Below, piece by piece: positions 29,212 through 51,604 of a stretch of DNA of 64,000 bases; the stretch's first letter is position 1, and each line of letters starts with the position of its first letter. The notes under the pieces were generated by a model. That model was not told the origin of the DNA and made no database searches. It was given only the letters and a program-made list of their open reading frames with translations. A program made the position numbers and the translations under genes. This DNA comes from Escherichia coli (GTDB lineage Bacteria > Pseudomonadota > Gammaproteobacteria > Enterobacterales > Enterobacteriaceae), in assembly GCF_016026235.1 (NCBI RefSeq), contig NZ_CP065613.1. One strand, given 5' to 3'.

Positions 29212-30560
29212 GTCTGCTGCAATTCAGTGGCCTGTTTGTTGTCTGGCTGCTCTGCACGCTGTTTATTGCCACGCTGACCTGGTTTGAGTTTCGCCGTGTG
29301 CGCTTTAACTTCAATGTCTTCTTTTCATTGCTGTTTTTGCTCACCTTTTTCTTCGGCTTCCCGCTGACCAGCATGCTGGTATTTCGCTTTGATGTTGGTG
29401 TCGCGCCGCCAGAAATCTTGTTGCAGGCGTTGCTTTCTGCGGGCTGCTTCTACGCGGTTTACTATGTCACCTACAAAACCCGCCTACGCAAACGCGTTGC
29501 TGATGTACCGCGCCGTCCGCTGTTTACCATGAACCGCGTGGAGACCAATCTTACGTGGGTGATCCTGATGGGCATCGCGCTGGTAAGCGTCGGCATCTTC
29601 TTCATGCACAACGGCTTTTTGCTGTTCCGGCTTAACTCCTACAGTCAGATCTTCTCCAGTGAAGTCTCCGGCGTGGCGTTAAAACGCTTCTTTTACTTTT
29701 TCATCCCGGCGATGCTGGTGGTCTACTTTCTGCGCCAGGATAGCAAAGCGTGGCTGTTTTTCCTCGTCAGCACGGTCGCCTTTGGCTTGCTGACTTATAT
29801 GATTGTCGGCGGCACTCGCGCCAATATCATCATCGCATTCGCTATCTTCCTGTTTATTGGCATTATTCGCGGCTGGATTTCGTTGTGGATGCTGGCGGCG
29901 GCGGGCGTGCTGGGGATTGTGGGCATGTTCTGGCTGGCGCTAAAACGCTATGGAATGAATGTGAGCGGCGATGAAGCGTTCTATACGTTTCTCTATCTCA
30001 CTCGCGACACCTTCTCGCCGTGGGAGAATCTGGCGTTGCTGTTGCAGAACTACGACAACATCGACTTCCAGGGCCTGGCTCCAATTGTCCGCGATTTCTA
30101 TGTCTTTATCCCTTCCTGGCTGTGGCCGGGTCGCCCGAGTATGGTGCTGAACTCAGCCAACTACTTTACCTGGGAAGTGCTGAATAACCACTCCGGACTG
30201 GCGATCTCGCCTACGCTTATAGGCTCACTGGTGGTGATGGGCGGCGCGTTGTTCATCCCGCTCGGGGCGATCGTGGTTGGTCTGATCATCAAATGGTTCG
30301 ACTGGCTGTATGAGCTGGGCAACCGCGAGCCTAATCGCTATAAGGCTGCGATATTGCACAGTTTCTGCTTTGGGGCGATCTTCAATATGATCGTGCTGGC
30401 ACGTGAAGGGCTGGATTCGTTTGTTTCACGCGTAGTCTTTTTTATCGTGGTCTTCGGCGCATGTCTGATGATCGCAAAACTGTTGTACTGGCTTTTTGAA
30501 AGCGCCGGACTCATTCATAAACGTACAAAATCATCGCTCCGGACGCAGGTTGAAGGATAA
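29208..30560 (+). CDS. wzyE: ECA polymerase
   Basis: 450-aa polytopic membrane ORF; cluster position. Confidence 0.9.
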
Positions 30561-32981: not shown

Positions 32982-33058
<77 letters not shown>

Positions 33059-33115
33059 TTTAGTCCCGGCGCTTGAGCTGCGGTGGTAGTAATACCGCGT
33101 AACAAGATTTGTAGT

Positions 33116-33192
33116 GGTGGCTATAGCTCAGTTGGTAGAGCCCTGGATTGTGATTCCAGTTGTCGTGGGTTCGAATCCCATTAGCCACCCCA
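33116..33192 (+). tRNA. hisR: tRNA-His (anticodon GTG)
   Basis: GGTGGCTATAGCTCAGTTGGTAGAGC...TTAGCCACCCCA, including the extra 5' G typical of tRNA-His. Confidence 0.95.
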
Positions 33193-33212
33193 TTATTAGA
33201 AGTTGTGACAAT

Positions 33213-33299
33213 GCGAAGGTGGCGGAATTGGTAGACGCGCTAGCTTCAGGTGTTAGTGTCCTTACGGACGTGGGGGTTCAAGTCCCCCCCCTCGCACCA
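33213..33299 (+). tRNA. leuT: tRNA-Leu (anticodon CAG)
   Basis: 87-nt long-variable-arm tRNA GCGAAGGTGGCGGAATTGGTAGACGCGCTAGCTTCAGG...CTCGCACCA. Confidence 0.95.
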
Positions 33300-33341
33300 C
33301 GACTTTAAAGAATTGAACTAAAAATTCAAAAAGCAGTATTT

Positions 33342-33418
33342 CGGCGAGTAGCGCAGCTTGGTAGCGCAACTGGTTTGGGACCAGTGGGTCGGAGGTTCGA
33401 ATCCTCTCTCGCCGACCA
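33342..33418 (+). tRNA. proM: tRNA-Pro (anticodon TGG)
   Basis: CGGCGAGTAGCGCAGCTTGGTAGCGCAACTGGTTTGGGACCAG...CTCGCCGACCA. Confidence 0.95.
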
Positions 33419-34883: not shown

Positions 34884-35045
34884 TCAATAAATTGCAGCGT
34901 TCTGTGGATACTGGTTTGGGTGATCGTATCCGGCAAAGCCTTTGCGTGCGGTGGCAGTTGACGGGGTATCTGCTGCGCTGGCCATGAGAGGAAGAGCGGC
35001 GGCGACAGCAACAACAAGAAGTTTGGGTGAAAACGAAAATTCCAT
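34884..35045 (-). pseudogene. aslA: arylsulfatase aslA 5' remnant (53 codons; signal-peptide region only)
   Basis: Minus-strand ATG at 35045 reads [53 protein letters not shown] then stops inside the REP-linked motif; only ~240 bp separate it from aslB, where a ~1.65-kb gene is expected by synteny. Confidence 0.6.
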
Positions 35046-35468
35046 GCAAAATGCTCCGGTTTCATGTCATCAAAATGATGACGTAATTAAGCATTGATAA
35101 TTGAGATCCCTCTCCCTGACAGGATGATTACATAAATAATAGTGACAAAAATAAATTATTTATTTATCCAGAAAATGAATTGGAAAATCAGGAGAGCGTT
35201 TTCAATCCTACCTCTGGCGCAGTTGATATGTAAGGCAGGTTTATTATATCGCGTTGATTATTGATGCTTTTTTTAGTTTTAACGGCAATTAATATATGTG
35301 TTATTAATTGAATGAATTTTATCATTCATAATAAGTATGTGTAGGATCAAGCTCAGGTTAAATATTCACTCAGGAAGTTATTACTCAGGAAGCAAAGAGG
35401 ATTACAGAATTATCTCATAACAAGTGTTAAGGGATGTTATTTCCCGATTCTCTGTGGCATAATAAACG

Positions 35469-35676
35469 GGTAGATGCTCATTCCATCTCTTATGTTCGCC
35501 TTAGTGCCTCATAAACTCCGGAATGACGCAGAGCCGTTTACGGTGCTTATCGTCCACTGACAGATGTCGCTTATGCCTCATCAGACACCATGGACACAAC
35601 GTTGAGTGAAGCACCCACTTGTTGTCATACAGACCTGTTTTAACGCCTGCTCCGTAATAAGAGCAGGCGTTTTTTT
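35469..35676 (+). ncRNA. glmZ: GlmZ small RNA (activator of glmS translation)
   Basis: GTAGATGCTCATTCCATCTCTTATGTTCGCC... through terminator hairpin GCCTGCTCCGTAATAAGAGCAGGCG + T7; matches recalled GlmZ sequence and its position upstream of hemY. Confidence 0.85.
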
Positions 35677-35723
35677 ATGCATCAGAAAGGTCCCGGAGGT
35701 GCTTGCCTCCGGGTGAGAAGGAA

Positions 35724-36920
35724 CTACTGTGGTGGGTTGTTCTGCAACGTTAACATCAAACCGTCGCGACGCATCGCTGCAGCTTCTTCCGGCTTGTGCA
35801 GTCTGTCCAGCGCGTCGGCAAGCCATGCGTAATCGTAGGCGTCCGGACGTTGTTTCAGCGCCGCGCGGAAGGCGAGCGATGCTTCCTGCCATTCTCCGTG
35901 CTTCATCAGTGACTGGCCCAGTGTGCTCCACAACAGCGGGCGATCGCCGACGTTTTTGATCTGCTGGCGCAGCACTTTTTCCAGCTGTTCCGGATTGTTG
36001 GTTTTCAGTCGAGGAATCGGCAGCAGTAGGCGATCGTCGTACTGGCGTTTCAGGCCATCGATGATAATTTGCTGGGCAGTATCATGATCGTCACATTCAA
36101 TAAGATGTTCCGCCATTGCCACCTGCAACGCTACCTGATGACGCGTTTTCCGGCTTTGGTTTTTCCACCAGTTACGCAAACCTTCACTACCGTTATCGGC
36201 ACGCGCCTGATCCATCAGGCCAATCCATGCCTGTTGTTCCAGCATTGCACGATGTTCTTCATCACCAACATGGGCTTTCGCCATTGATGGGATGATATCC
36301 AGCAGCGAACTCCATGCACCTGTGCGGATATACGCCTGTTCCGCCAGACGTAATACTTCCGGATGGCGTGGCGTAACTTCCAGCAGCTTATCCACGCCGT
36401 GGCGTGCAGCATGGTTTTCATTACGGGCCAGTTGCAGACGTACACGGGTGATTTCTACCGGAATGGTGTCATTGCCGGCCAGCTCTGCTGCGCGTTCCAG
36501 ATGTTGGTTGGCGCGTGCTTCATCACCACGTTGTTGCGCGGCTTCGGCAGCCAGTAGATAGTTCACCACCGGTTGTTCCGCGTGATCGGCATTTTTCGCC
36601 ATCAGCTTTTCAACTTGCTGATAATCGCCTTCCGCCAGTTTCAGCAGCGCCTGTTCGGTCTGCTTACGGGCACGGCGACGCTTACGTCCGACAAACCACC
36701 CACGGGTGTGTGCGCCTGTGCGGAAGATCCGCCGCAGTAGCCACTCAATGGCAAACAGCACTACCATCGCCAGAATCAAAATAATCGCCAGGCCCGTGAC
36801 GCTGGTTTCGATATTGTAGTTGTCAGTCTGGATCAGCACGTAACCCTGATGACCGGCAATCATCGGGCCAACCACTATCCCCGCAATCAGCAAAACAAAG
36901 AGTAATAACACTTTTAGCAT
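35724..36920 (-). CDS. hemY: HemY (TPR-containing inner-membrane protein)
   Basis: 398-aa ORF MLKVLLLFVLLIAGIVVGPMIAGHQGYVLIQTDNYNIE... Confidence 0.93.
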   Translation of the reverse strand: MLKVLLLFVLLIAGIVVGPMIAGHQGYVLIQTDNYNIETSVTGLAIILILAMVVLFAIEWLLRRIFRTGAHTRGWFVGRKRRRARKQTEQALLKLAEGDYQQVEKLMAKNADHAEQPVVNYLLAAEAAQQRGDEARANQHLERAAELAGNDTIPVEITRVRLQLARNENHAARHGVDKLLEVTPRHPEVLRLAEQAYIRTGAWSSLLDIIPSMAKAHVGDEEHRAMLEQQAWIGLMDQARADNGSEGLRNWWKNQSRKTRHQVALQVAMAEHLIECDDHDTAQQIIIDGLKRQYDDRLLLPIPRLKTNNPEQLEKVLRQQIKNVGDRPLLWSTLGQSLMKHGEWQEASLAFRAALKQRPDAYDYAWLADALDRLHKPEEAAAMRRDGLMLTLQNNPPQ

Positions 36921-36922
36921 GG

Positions 36923-38176
36923 TTATTCTCCTTGCGGCGCGGCTGCCGGAGTATCACCTTGCGGTGCAGGTGCAGGTGCAGGTGCAGGTGCAGGTGCAGG
37001 TGCAGGTGCAGGTGCAGGTGCAGGTGCAGGTGCAGGTGCAGGTGCAGGTTTAGCTTCCGTTGTCCCCGCTGCCGGTTGTGCCAGCAGGTTACGCACGCGG
37101 GTCTGCATCAGTTTTTCCAGCATCGCCTGGCTTTGCAGGGTTTCCGGAAGATCCATCGAGATATTTTGCTGGCTTAACTGGTCCACCTCGTCGAGGAACG
37201 CTTTGGTGGTGGCATCATCAGTATCGTAGTAAGCACGTACCCAGGTGGAGACGTTCTCCAGCGCCTGGCGATAAGTCTCTTCCTGGTGACGCGGTACAGC
37301 TTGTGCTGCGACCAGCAGGCGAGAGCGAATATTTTCGCGCAGATAGATATCCTGATTTGGCGCTAACAGCGGTACGGCGGTGTCATCACGACGGCGAATC
37401 GTAATGAAGTTGTCCATAAAGTTCTGCCAGCTTTTTTGCAGATTGATACGCCATTCGCTGATGGAACTGGAAAGCTCTTCACCGTCGGAATCCATCGGCG
37501 AACCATCGCTGTCATTATCGGCCAGACGCAGGTTATCTACCTGATTTGAAAGCTGATTAAGCTTAAGGATGATGCCGTCATAATCCACCTGCGAAACTGC
37601 AGAAAGGCTGGCGATATCATCGGTAATTGCCCGACGAACGGTAATCAGACTCGGGTCATTCATATCCGCCAGGCTGGCATCTGCACTTTTCAGCAACGCT
37701 GCAGCGGTCGTGACGTCCTGATCGCTCCACAGCTTCCGTCCGGCGAGTTTCACCAGAAAATCGGCCTGAGCCAGCAGCCAGGTTTTAGCATCGCTGCCGG
37801 AAATGGTGGCGACCTTTTGTTGGACTTCATCCAACTGTTTTGCCAGCGTTTCTTGCTGACGATTCGCCTGCTTAAGCTGTGCAGCTTGTTGCTTAATAAT
37901 GCCTTCCAGCTCGGCTTTTTGGCTCTCCTGGGCTTTTTGCAATGCCGTCAGTTGGTTAGCCAGGGCATCGCTGGTGGCGGTCTGATTGACGGCCTGTTGT
38001 TTACCCCAGCCATACAAACCGACGCCCGCCGCCAGAGCAATAGCGATAGCCACCGCGCTGAGAATCAATGCGGTATTGTTCTTACTCTTTTTTTCTGTTG
38101 CGACAGGTTGTGACGTGGTGTCCACGGCCTCCCTGGTCTCTTCAACCACGGCGGAGGTTTTTTCTTGTTCCGTCAT
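36923..38176 (-). CDS. hemX: HemX (putative uroporphyrinogen-III C-methyltransferase-like membrane protein)
   Basis: 417-aa ORF; C-terminal region contains a long (Pro-Ala)n run encoded by the hexamer array. Confidence 0.9.
36965..37048. repeat. tandem hexanucleotide array (TGCAGG x ~14) inside hemX
   Basis: Perfect GGTGCA/TGCAGG repeats read directly; in frame, encoding (Pro-Ala)n on the minus strand. Confidence 0.95.
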
Positions 38177-43169: not shown

Positions 43170-43631
43170 TGTTGTATCCTGTTTTTAAGTGATGGCGGCA
43201 GTATAGCGGCATGGGGTCAGGGCTTCAAAGTTTGCACCTCTGCTGCTGCGTTCCGGCATGATTCATCCGTCACCGGAATAATGATGTCTCTGTGTAGCGA
43301 AAGATTTGTCTCTTCATTAGGGCGCAGTTACACCACGCCTTTCCCTGTTTCTGGTAAACATTATGATCAGGTTTACCGAGCGAGCATCCTCACGCTGACG
43401 GAACTAAAAAAGCCAACAAACAAACTACATTGCGATAGTGCATAGAGCCATCTTGGCGCGAGGTGCCGATCACGAAACTACCAGCAAAACATAAATCCCC
43501 ACGAGTAAGCGTTATACTCGCAGCATTTCCTCACTTTTCAGACTTTATAAAGAGTCGCTAAACGCTTGCTTTTACGTCTTCTCCTGCGATGATAGAAAGC
43601 AGAAAGCGATGAACTTTACAGGCAATCCATA

Positions 43632-49401: not shown

Positions 49402-49833
49402 TTAACCTTTCCGCTCGACGGAAATCATGGTGACAAAAGGATAGCGTTGCCACGGGATTGCCCCGCCTTTCATATACATATGTGAAATCGTACCATCAAG
49501 ATAAAGCAGCTGCTCAACGTTCAGTTTCGCTTTGGCATAACAGGCAAAATCATAAAAATTTGTCGCCTGCTGGCTCAACAAAAACACGGCATTCCCATGT
49601 TTATTAATCCCAACACCGTTACGAATTTTACGTGAGGCGACGTTGGGATGAATACGCGGATTAATTACACCGTTTTCCATCAACATTGGCCCTGACTGCA
49701 CCGCAAACTGAATATCTTTACTGGCTTTAAAAGCATCTAGACGAACGATGCCGACTTTATCTCCCGCGACATAAAACACGCCGCCAGGACGGATAAAGAA
49801 ATTCCCTTCACCTGAAGCGAGATTTAACGCCAC
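49402..49833 (-). pseudogene. yigE: yigE C-terminal fragment (DUF2233), separated from its 5' part by IS4
   Basis: Track ORF continues the reading frame of 51266..51604 across the IS4 target duplication (...QQKV | ALNLASGEG...). Confidence 0.8.
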
Positions 49834-49842
49834 CTTCTGCTG

Positions 49843-51268
49843 TAATGCCGATCAGTTAAGGATCAGTTGACCGATCCAGTGGCTGTGTAAGAATCCGGAA
49901 ACGCTCACTTGTTTCCGGATTTTTTTATGCACATTGGACAGGCTCTTGATCTGGTATCCCGTTACGATTCTCTGCGTAACCCACTGACTTCTCTGGGGGA
50001 TTACCTCGACCCCGAACTCATCTCTCGTTGCCTTGCCGAATCAGGTACTGTAACGCTACGCAAGCGCCGTCTTCCCCTCGAAATGATGGTCTGGTGTATT
50101 GTTGGCATGGCGCTTGAGCGTAAAGAACCTCTTCACCAGATTGTGAATCGCCTGGACATCATGCTGCCGGGCAATCGCCCCTTCGTTGCCCCCAGTGCCG
50201 TTATTCAGGCCCGCCAGCGCCTGGGAAGTGAGGCTGTCCGCCGCGTGTTCACGAAAACAGCGCAGCTCTGGCATAACGCCACGCCGCATCCGCACTGGTG
50301 CGGCCTGACCCTGCTGGCCATCGATGGTGTGTTCTGGCGCACACCGGATACACCAGAGAACGATGCAGCCTTCCCCCGCCAGACACATGCCGGGAACCCG
50401 GCGCTCTACCCGCAGGTCAAAATGGTCTGCCAGATGGAACTGACCAGCCATCTGCTGACGGCTGCAGCCTTCGGCACGATGAAGAACAGCGAAAATGAGC
50501 TTGCTGAGCAACTTATAGAACAAACCGGCGATAACACTCTGACGTTAATGGATAAAGGTTATTACTCACTGGGACTGTTAAATGCCTGGAGCCTGGCGGG
50601 AGAACACCGCCACTGGATGATACCTCTCAGAAAGGGAGCGCAATATGAAGAGCTCAGAAAACTGGGTAAAGGCGATCATCTGGTGAAGCTGAAAACCAGC
50701 CCGCAGGCACGAAAAAAGTGGCCGGGACTGGGAAATGAAGTGACAGCCCGCCTGCTGACCGTGACGCGCAAAGGAAAAGTCTGCCATCTGCTGACGTCGA
50801 TGACGGACGCCATGCGCTTCCCCGGAGGAGAAATGGCGGATCTGTACAGTCATCGCTGGGAAATCGAACTGGGATACAGGGAGATAAAACAGACGATGCA
50901 ACTGAGCAGGCTGACGCTGAGAAGTAAAAAGCCGGAGCTTGTGGAGCAAGAGCTGTGGGGTGTCTTACTGGCTTATAATCTGGTGAGATATCAGATGATT
51001 AAAATGGCGGAACATCTGAAAGGTTACTGGCCGAATCAACTGAGTTTCTCAGAATCATGCGGAATGGTGATGAGAATGCTGATGACATTGCAGGGCGCTT
51101 CACCGGGACGTATACCGGAGCTGATGCGCGATCTTGCAAGTATGGGACAACTTGTGAAATTACCGACGAGAAGGGGAAGGGCCTTCCCGAGAGTGGTAAA
51201 GGAGAGGCCCTGGAAATACCCCACAGCCCCGAAAAAGAGCCAGTCAGTTGCTTAACTGACTGGCATTA
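49843..51268 (+). mobile_element. IS4 insertion sequence (1426 bp)
   Basis: Terminal inverted repeats TAATGCCGATCAGTTAAG / CTTAACTGACTGGCATTA; perfect 12-bp direct repeat CACCTTCTGCTG at 49831-49842 and 51269-51280. Confidence 0.93.
49927..51255 (+). CDS. insG: IS4 transposase
   Basis: [34 protein letters not shown]... (442 aa, DDE type) inside track ORF 49909..51255. Confidence 0.93.
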
Positions 51269-51604
51269 CACCTTCTGCTGACCGTTTTCGATGTACAAAC
51301 CGAGCGGCGCATAGCTTTCATCATAGATGCCGCCGTTCATCGCCATCTGCACCTGACCCTGACTATTCATATCCGCCAGCAGAGCATGTAACGTTCCCCA
51401 CGCTTCGCCATTAGCTTTTTGCCAGTACATTTTCACCCGCTCTGTTTGAGGATTAACGGTATACGCCTGTACGGTCAGCGTCGGATCTGAGAGTGCGCAA
51501 TCATCAGCGGCAACAGCAAACAAGGGAAGTAAGGTGAGGGTGAGAAAAATCTGTTTGAGATTCAAGGTGATCATTCCTTTACCAATGAGTAGCCGATGCG
51601 CCAT
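51266..51604 (-). pseudogene. yigE: yigE N-terminal fragment (signal peptide + first ~110 codons)
   Basis: Track ORF MAHRLLIGKGMITLNLKQIFLTLTLLPLFAVAADDCALS...; stops two codons into the IS4 end. Confidence 0.8.

Follow-up and report, generated by a model that had tools for sequence, protein, structure and literature searches.

The (Pro-Ala)n-encoding repeat at the 3′ end of Escherichia coli hemX is the MLVA marker CVN014

Results

A perfect hexanucleotide array at the end of the hemX gene

The open reading frame at positions 36923-38176 of the window (the whole 64-kb stretch of E. coli DNA under analysis) was identified as hemX. Its product matches NCBIfam model PRK10920 (E = 2e-217; 721.6 bits, cut-off 313) as well as Pfam family PF04375 (360.8 bits; cut-off 25.9). 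The order of the reading frames and their family assignments place the gene among hemC, hemD and hemY, with the hemC-hemD-hemX-hemY arrangement that is usual for this operon. Model score, operon position and an N-terminal membrane anchor (hydrophobic residues 36-57) all agree with membership in the HemX family. The features of the gene are the following.

36923..38176, minus strand: hemX coding sequence, 417 aa with the expanded tail (the K-12 allele encodes 393 aa; K-12 hemX is 1182 nt)
38006..38071, minus strand: the one hydrophobic membrane-spanning segment of HemX (residues 36-57), preceded by KKSK (predicted from sequence)
37088..37789, minus strand: HemX domain, Pfam PF04375, residues 130-363, all-helical with high confidence in the AlphaFold2 model; the repeat lies after the domain end
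36963..37049, minus strand: perfect hexanucleotide array, (GGTGCA)14.5 as read on the plus strand and (CCT GCA)14 in the hemX frame; coding part 36965-37048
36928..36933, minus strand: hemY Shine-Dalgarno sequence AAGGAG, inside the last hemX codons (..CAA GGA GAA TAA cc ATG)

Tandem Repeats Finder reported 14.5 GGTGCA units at 36963-37049, with a period of 6, 100% matches, zero indels and a score of 174, and inspection of the raw sequence agreed with this call. Read in the TGCAGG phase, 14 units fill exactly the 84 bp between 36965 and 37048, as had been described in a first-pass annotation of this DNA. On the minus strand the array consists of 14 CCT-GCA codon pairs, specifying (Pro-Ala)14 at HemX residues 377-404; just 13 residues, with no folded domain, separate the end of the tract from the stop codon. 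Within the 64-kb window this is the sole perfect tandem array to contain a unit of more than 3 nt in at least four copies, and it far outscores every other Tandem Repeats Finder match. Thus, its presence is not a chance feature.

The array lies close to the downstream gene. The hemY AUG codon (36918-36920) is found 2 nt past the hemX stop codon, and the end of the array maps 42 nt upstream of it. The C-terminal residues ...APQGE of HemX are conserved in Escherichia, Citrobacter and Salmonella while the preceding tail is not, a conservation that may be explained by the hemY ribosome-binding site overlapping these codons. A 150-nt stretch in mRNA sense containing this site was predicted to fold no better than shuffled sequences (z = -0.78, with DNA energy parameters), so that a regulatory structure at the hemY site finds no support.

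The Pro-Ala tract in the predicted structure of HemX

An AlphaFold2 model of HemX was built on 131 diverse family members (mean pLDDT 82). The N-terminus is modelled as disordered, followed by one long helix spanning residues 36-125, which holds the hydrophobic segment 36-57, and by a confident all-helical domain at residues 130-366. The remainder of the protein (367-417) is predicted to be coil, with pLDDT values of about 57-66. The first-pass annotation had presented the tract as a linker near the HemX C-terminus. Its position was correctly given, but the term linker does not apply, since the tract forms a terminal tail; in the model the Pro-Ala run appears as a non-globular extension at the end of the protein, not as a connection between two domains. 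The KKSK motif preceding the membrane segment suggests, by the positive-inside rule, an N-in/C-out topology with the tail in the periplasm.

HemX has been listed among predicted inner-membrane proteins and is poorly characterised (PMC2704936). A hemX deletion from the Keio collection is viable, with a mild gentamicin phenotype (PMC12282077), and the protein has been described as a distant relative of Mic60 without a mitofilin domain (bioRxiv 10.1101/2022.06.14.496148). In RefSeq and NCBIfam, the HemX product is named uroporphyrinogen-III C-methyltransferase. The possibility that HemX is a SAM-dependent tetrapyrrole methylase was considered and rejected: the Pfam search found no methylase domain, returning, apart from the HemX domain, just a Tweety match below the threshold, and the model is of an all-helical, membrane-anchored protein. 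Likewise, a Foldseek comparison of the model with the PDB gave no match at E <= 0.001 and no methyltransferase in the top matches. On the basis of domain content and modelled fold, the methyltransferase name looks like a legacy misannotation.

The hemX array is CVN014

The first-pass annotation had proposed that the array would make a useful typing locus. It already is one, in routine use for MLVA since the Lindstedt scheme. The published primers for locus CVN014 and the corresponding sizing formula, (size - 111)/6, were taken from PMC8143711 (primers in Table 1) and mapped onto the window.

36878..36901, plus strand: CVN014 forward primer site, in the first codons of hemY; unique match, 0 mismatches
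37053..37072, minus strand: CVN014 reverse primer site; unique match, 0 mismatches

The two primers converge on the array and define an amplicon of 195 bp (36878-37072), from which the formula yields (195-111)/6 = 14. Since both primers flank the array without a mismatch and the amplicon size returns the number of units counted in the sequence, the hemX array is identical with CVN014, a VNTR locus in the generic MLVA scheme for E. coli. The formula also gave integers, from 2 to 25, in ten other strains. Thus primer sites, 6-bp unit, size formula and polymorphism, including polymorphism within sequence types, all correspond; CVN014 and the hemX array are the same physical locus with zero difference at the DNA level. 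No primer of the other GECM-10 loci maps anywhere in the window.

GECM-7 and GECM-10 are the names given to the generic E. coli scheme, which is credited to Lindstedt et al. 2007 and Lobersli et al. 2012 (PMC8143711, PMC3877011, PMC5217547). CVN014 is referred to in the literature as the "most variable locus" of this scheme; it was found to have the "largest variation" (PMC5217547), and many alleles occur in ST131 alone (PMC3407997). The high polymorphism thus reported was reproduced in complete genomes (see below). The numbering of CVN014 alleles is not uniform from laboratory to laboratory. Literature matches combining hemX with VNTR or MLVA were limited to an unrelated Salmonella SNP table and were set aside; the link to CVN014 came through the primer sequences. 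Among the open-access MLVA papers retrievable with hemX as a term, none names hemX as the CVN014 locus. Assigning CVN014 to the 3′ end of hemX and to a (Pro-Ala)n tail, as read from the sequence, is a small addition and not a discovery.

Range of array lengths in E. coli

A 487-bp query with the array at its centre was compared with 5,426 complete E. coli genomes and matched all except one (5,425 of 5,426), the locus annotated as hemX/hemY being present in a median of one copy per genome. Identity bands and coverage from BLAST proved unfit for counting alleles, because two-piece alignments saturate; the spans of the records were used instead, and a synthetic query with 40 units served to rank the long alleles, the span of a record being equal to 403+6n. 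The allele distribution rests on two systematic spread samples of 60 rows each and on the 60 top-ranked rows out of 5,425.

All of the listed spans obeyed the relationship, with n ranging from 2 to 25. Every listed length change is therefore a multiple of 6 bp and maintains the reading frame, in agreement with the first-pass annotation, which had called the repeat slippage-prone and its length changes in-frame. The same annotation had predicted strain-to-strain variation in length and proposed comparing repeat number across hemX alleles; the comparison returned unlike numbers over this entire range, and differences were found even between near-identical strains. Array and variability had thus been correctly called, yet the idea was already known.

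K-12 strains stand at the lower limit, with 2 units, and strain SD134209 carries the longest allele, with 25. One sample of 60 records spanned 2 to 13 units and the other 2 to 25, with a median of 6 in both and 13 to 15 alleles; when they were pooled (120 rows), 15 length classes were counted, giving a Simpson diversity of about 0.90. In the sampled rows, allele lengths were distributed broadly and continuously, with no clusters at preferred lengths. About nine or more units are present in about 1,224 genomes (23%) and at least 17 units in 46 genomes. The 14 units of the window, ranked between rows with 15 and 13 units, place its allele in about the top 2-3%. All 11 arrays that were read at the sequence level (2, 5, 6, 10, 11, 14, 16, 17, 20, 22 and 25 units) were uninterrupted. 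One strain, NCTC11023, has no array; relative to K-12 it carries an in-frame deletion of 27 bp that removes adjacent codons as well.

Array length changes locally and rapidly

Pairs of closely related strains carrying different alleles were compared over 30.4 kb of flanking DNA (15.2 kb per side). ZH49 (20 units) and ZH48 (16 units) showed 0 SNPs in this interval. A single SNP was found between O111:NM strain 2010C-3053 (22 units) and O111:H8 strain 08-4455 (11 units), and again a single SNP between O157:H7 strains EDL933 (5 units) and G5295 (17 units). Differences of 4, 11 and 12 units beside 0 or 1 flanking SNP imply that changes in the array arise at the locus itself, and far more rapidly than point substitutions accumulate. 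By its perfect head-to-tail repeats, allele differences in whole units (4 to 12) and flanks with 0-1 SNP, the locus is a microsatellite.

These pairs bear on the alternative that recombination alone accounts for the differences in length, that is, that they represent imported hemX alleles and not mutations arising at the locus. Such imports would bring flanking polymorphisms along, and the three pairs lack them. Furthermore, FDAARGOS_943 (13 units), the closest relative of the window in the collection, differs from it by exactly one unit, with 18 SNPs in 36.8 kb. A different picture was obtained with an ST131 pair of 6 and 10 units: 73 of its 76 flanking SNPs fall within 15 kb on one side, a pattern typical of a recombined segment. 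The latter case indicates that recombination can also carry array alleles between strains; as the sole source of the variation, we regard it as very unlikely.

Apparent variation might also reflect assembly or sequencing errors at a low-complexity repeat. Some assemblies can miscall repeats, and one of the HemX entries (P0001, 485 aa) probably derives from a chimeric contig. Against an artefact stand the listed differences, which are exact multiples of 6 nt made of perfect units, and the results of independent PCR and capillary sizing, which show the same wide range of CVN014 alleles; an artefactual origin is barely credible.

Replication slippage is the probable mechanism, given that lengths change by whole units, arrays are perfect and flanks can be identical. 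Imperfect hairpins are predicted for both strands of the array, at -20.5 and -16.7 kcal/mol (z = -3.5 and -6.6 relative to dinucleotide shuffles). With a TGCA palindrome in each unit, either single strand can pair with itself, forming successive 4-bp stems with 2x2 mismatches between them. As modelled, such structures could stabilise slipped intermediates. The GC skew of the plus strand is positive in every 8-kb bin of the window, suggesting a head-on orientation of hemCDXY transcription relative to replication.

HemX tails in other species

A PA run is missing from the HemX tail of Salmonella; in Citrobacter species it is either short, (PA)2-5, or imperfect. Among 131 representatives of the HemX family, the median length of the tail following the domain is 13 aa, and a tandem peptide repeat is present in 2 of 131. 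A scan of species-representative genomes for (GGTGCA) arrays of at least 5 units detected at least 120 stretches; among the matches listed, two lie in hemX, in E. albertii (6 units) and in Citrobacter sp. FP75 (7 units), and both are perfect. The lack of a PA run in Salmonella, the short tails of the family and the small share of hemX arrays among the matches listed imply that the long tract is lineage-restricted. Sequence comparisons thus argue that it arose by lengthening of a short Pro/Ala-rich tail present in the ancestor, and is not a conserved feature of HemX.

Several other observations were made in the course of these searches. Arrays of (GGTGCA) with at least 5 units are widespread, notably in Burkholderiales, some of whose genomes carry several; the matches listed include 126 arrays of up to 26 units, and the longest open frame reads as Ala-Pro in about half of them. 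A second array of E. albertii, with 11 units, lies outside hemX and most plausibly reads as Gly-Ala. In Citrobacter sedlakii, HemX is either 394 or 400 aa long (P0008 and P0010, respectively), the difference being due to extra PAA units (..APAPAAPQ.. versus ..APAPAAPAAPAAPQ..). This polymorphism is independent of that of E. coli, as it concerns another repeat unit in another genus.

P0001, the 485-aa protein from an ENA contig, was initially a candidate for a very long allele. It was found instead to contain an internal duplication of residues ~296-376 (HQEETYRQ through TEAKPA), that is, of the C-terminal third of the protein, with a PA run interrupted by T; the contig is probably chimeric. 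HemX from Salmonella enterica serovar Berta (P0050, 413 aa) has a 24-aa tandem duplication across the end of the membrane segment. Either variant may represent a genuine duplication or an error of assembly.

Other variable features of the window

An IS4 element occupies positions 49843-51268 (1,426 bp) and has no counterpart in FDAARGOS_943, the nearest relative. It has terminal inverted repeats of 18 nt; the 12-bp sequence CACCTTCTGCTG, present on either side (49831-49842 and 51269-51280), is a target-site duplication. Its reading frame (49909-51255) encodes 448 aa and matches the Pfam families Nterm_IS4 and DDE_Tnp_1. Since the insertion point lies inside yigE, a member of the phosphodiester glycosidase family, this gene is interrupted in the window strain.

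The interval between aslB and hemY (window ~34908-35720) differs among strains. In the nearest relative, and in ZH48/49 and the O111 strains, whose flanks resemble those of the window, aslA is reduced to a 138-bp remnant annotated as arylsulfatase, whereas EDL933 and the ST131 strains have an intact aslA of 1,656 bp between aslB and hemY, accompanied in ST131 by an extra hypothetical gene. A lineage-specific deletion therefore adjoins the hem operon.

The interval between cyaY and lptM (window ~43289-43467) is a small variable island. The nearest relative harbours here a frameshifted pseudogene remnant of the DKNYY family (positions 30290-30468 of locus L012, by homology), and the O111 strains have three extra genes, encoding two hypothetical proteins and a DUF3304 protein. 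Finally, a tRNA cluster at 32982-33418 comprises Arg(CCG)-His(GTG)-Leu(CAG)-Pro(TGG); O157:H7 genomes have an additional copy of tRNA-Leu within this cluster.

Discussion

The results presented here are best accounted for by regarding CVN014 as a coding microsatellite at which slippage causes in-frame gains and losses and the length of the tail is near-neutral, a reading to which we assign a probability of roughly 0.88. The perfect (CCTGCA)n sequence at the 3′ end of hemX changes in length by whole 6-nt units, in all likelihood through slipped-strand mispairing during replication, possibly aided by fold-backs of the TGCA palindromes. Because the unit corresponds to two codons, the frame is kept, and the sole effect is a longer or shorter (Pro-Ala)n run in an unstructured C-terminal tail. 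With HemX anchored in the inner membrane, this tail is probably periplasmic.

The length of the tail might alternatively be under selection. Pro-Ala repeats could act as a semi-rigid spacer setting the periplasmic reach of the HemX C-terminus, or the repeat could modulate the translation of the coupled hemY gene, with hypermutability itself being selected. Such adaptive tuning would fit with the absence of imperfect units from arrays of all lengths, up to 25 units, with perfect hemX arrays being found in E. albertii and Citrobacter sp. FP75 as well, with the relationship, albeit distant, between HemX and the envelope-organising protein Mic60, and with the vicinity of hemY, whose Shine-Dalgarno sequence lies within hemX and whose start codon is a mere 42 nt from the array. 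The persistence of long perfect arrays in several lineages also calls for some caution regarding neutrality. On the other hand, nothing folded lies beyond the tract; Salmonella and most of the HemX family have no such tract; and hemX is dispensable in culture. As for hemY, the number of units leaves the distance between the array and the ribosome-binding site unchanged. We therefore consider tuning unlikely. In its most elaborate form, the Pro-Ala tail would be a length-adjustable rod on a Mic60-related envelope protein, in which ~2 to 25 units retune the reach of ...APQGE or the output of hemY as a graded rheostat under lineage-specific selection. Were this quite improbable scheme true, CVN014 would not be a neutral marker.

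Several findings speak against a function that is required or tuned: a viable allele lacking the array (NCTC11023), the absence of the tract from orthologues, the broad and continuous range of unclustered allele lengths and the position of the tract at the end of the protein. The sequence data are thus in favour of tail length being, probably, selectively near-neutral.

The hemX array shares some of its properties with simple-sequence contingency loci of Haemophilus, Neisseria and Campylobacter: a perfect short repeat which mutates far faster than by point mutation, presumably through slippage. In the latter, however, the units are not multiples of three, or they lie in promoters, and genes are switched on and off. 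The hemX unit spans two codons at the 3′ end of the gene and does not shift the frame, so that tail length alone varies. The 6-nt unit, its location in the last 10% of the coding sequence and the preservation of the reading frame in every listed allele, that with the 27-bp deletion among them, set this locus apart from phase-variable contingency loci.

Proline-rich periplasmic spacers joining two functional domains are found in TonB, with its (Glu-Pro)/(Lys-Pro) region, and in OmpA, with its Ala-Pro hinge. The HemX tract resembles them in being an X-Pro dipeptide repeat of an envelope protein that is expected to be extended and non-globular. It differs from them in being followed by 13 residues and not by a second domain, with low confidence in the model throughout the segment containing it, in being absent from orthologues of other genera and in varying about 12-fold in length within the species.

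A further parallel is provided by MLVA locus V5 of Yersinia enterocolitica, which has a GGTGCA unit (PMC3053224). V5 is like the hemX array in its unit, its length changes by whole units and its use as a typing marker. The two loci are probably not orthologous, and V5 appears to lie outside hemX. The idea that V5 might be the orthologous hemX VNTR was dropped, the array of Yersinia aldovae detected in the scan being located outside hemX.

The finding is mainly confirmatory, as this fast-evolving in-frame length marker has served E. coli MLVA for almost twenty years. What the present analysis adds is the mapping of CVN014 to hemX, the range of 2 to 25 units and one null allele in 5,425 genomes, and the identification of the tract as a probable expansion at the level of Escherichia and Citrobacter. 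For genome typing and pangenome studies, it means that HemX proteins of 384 to 439 aa reflect repeat length, and not separate genes or annotation errors.
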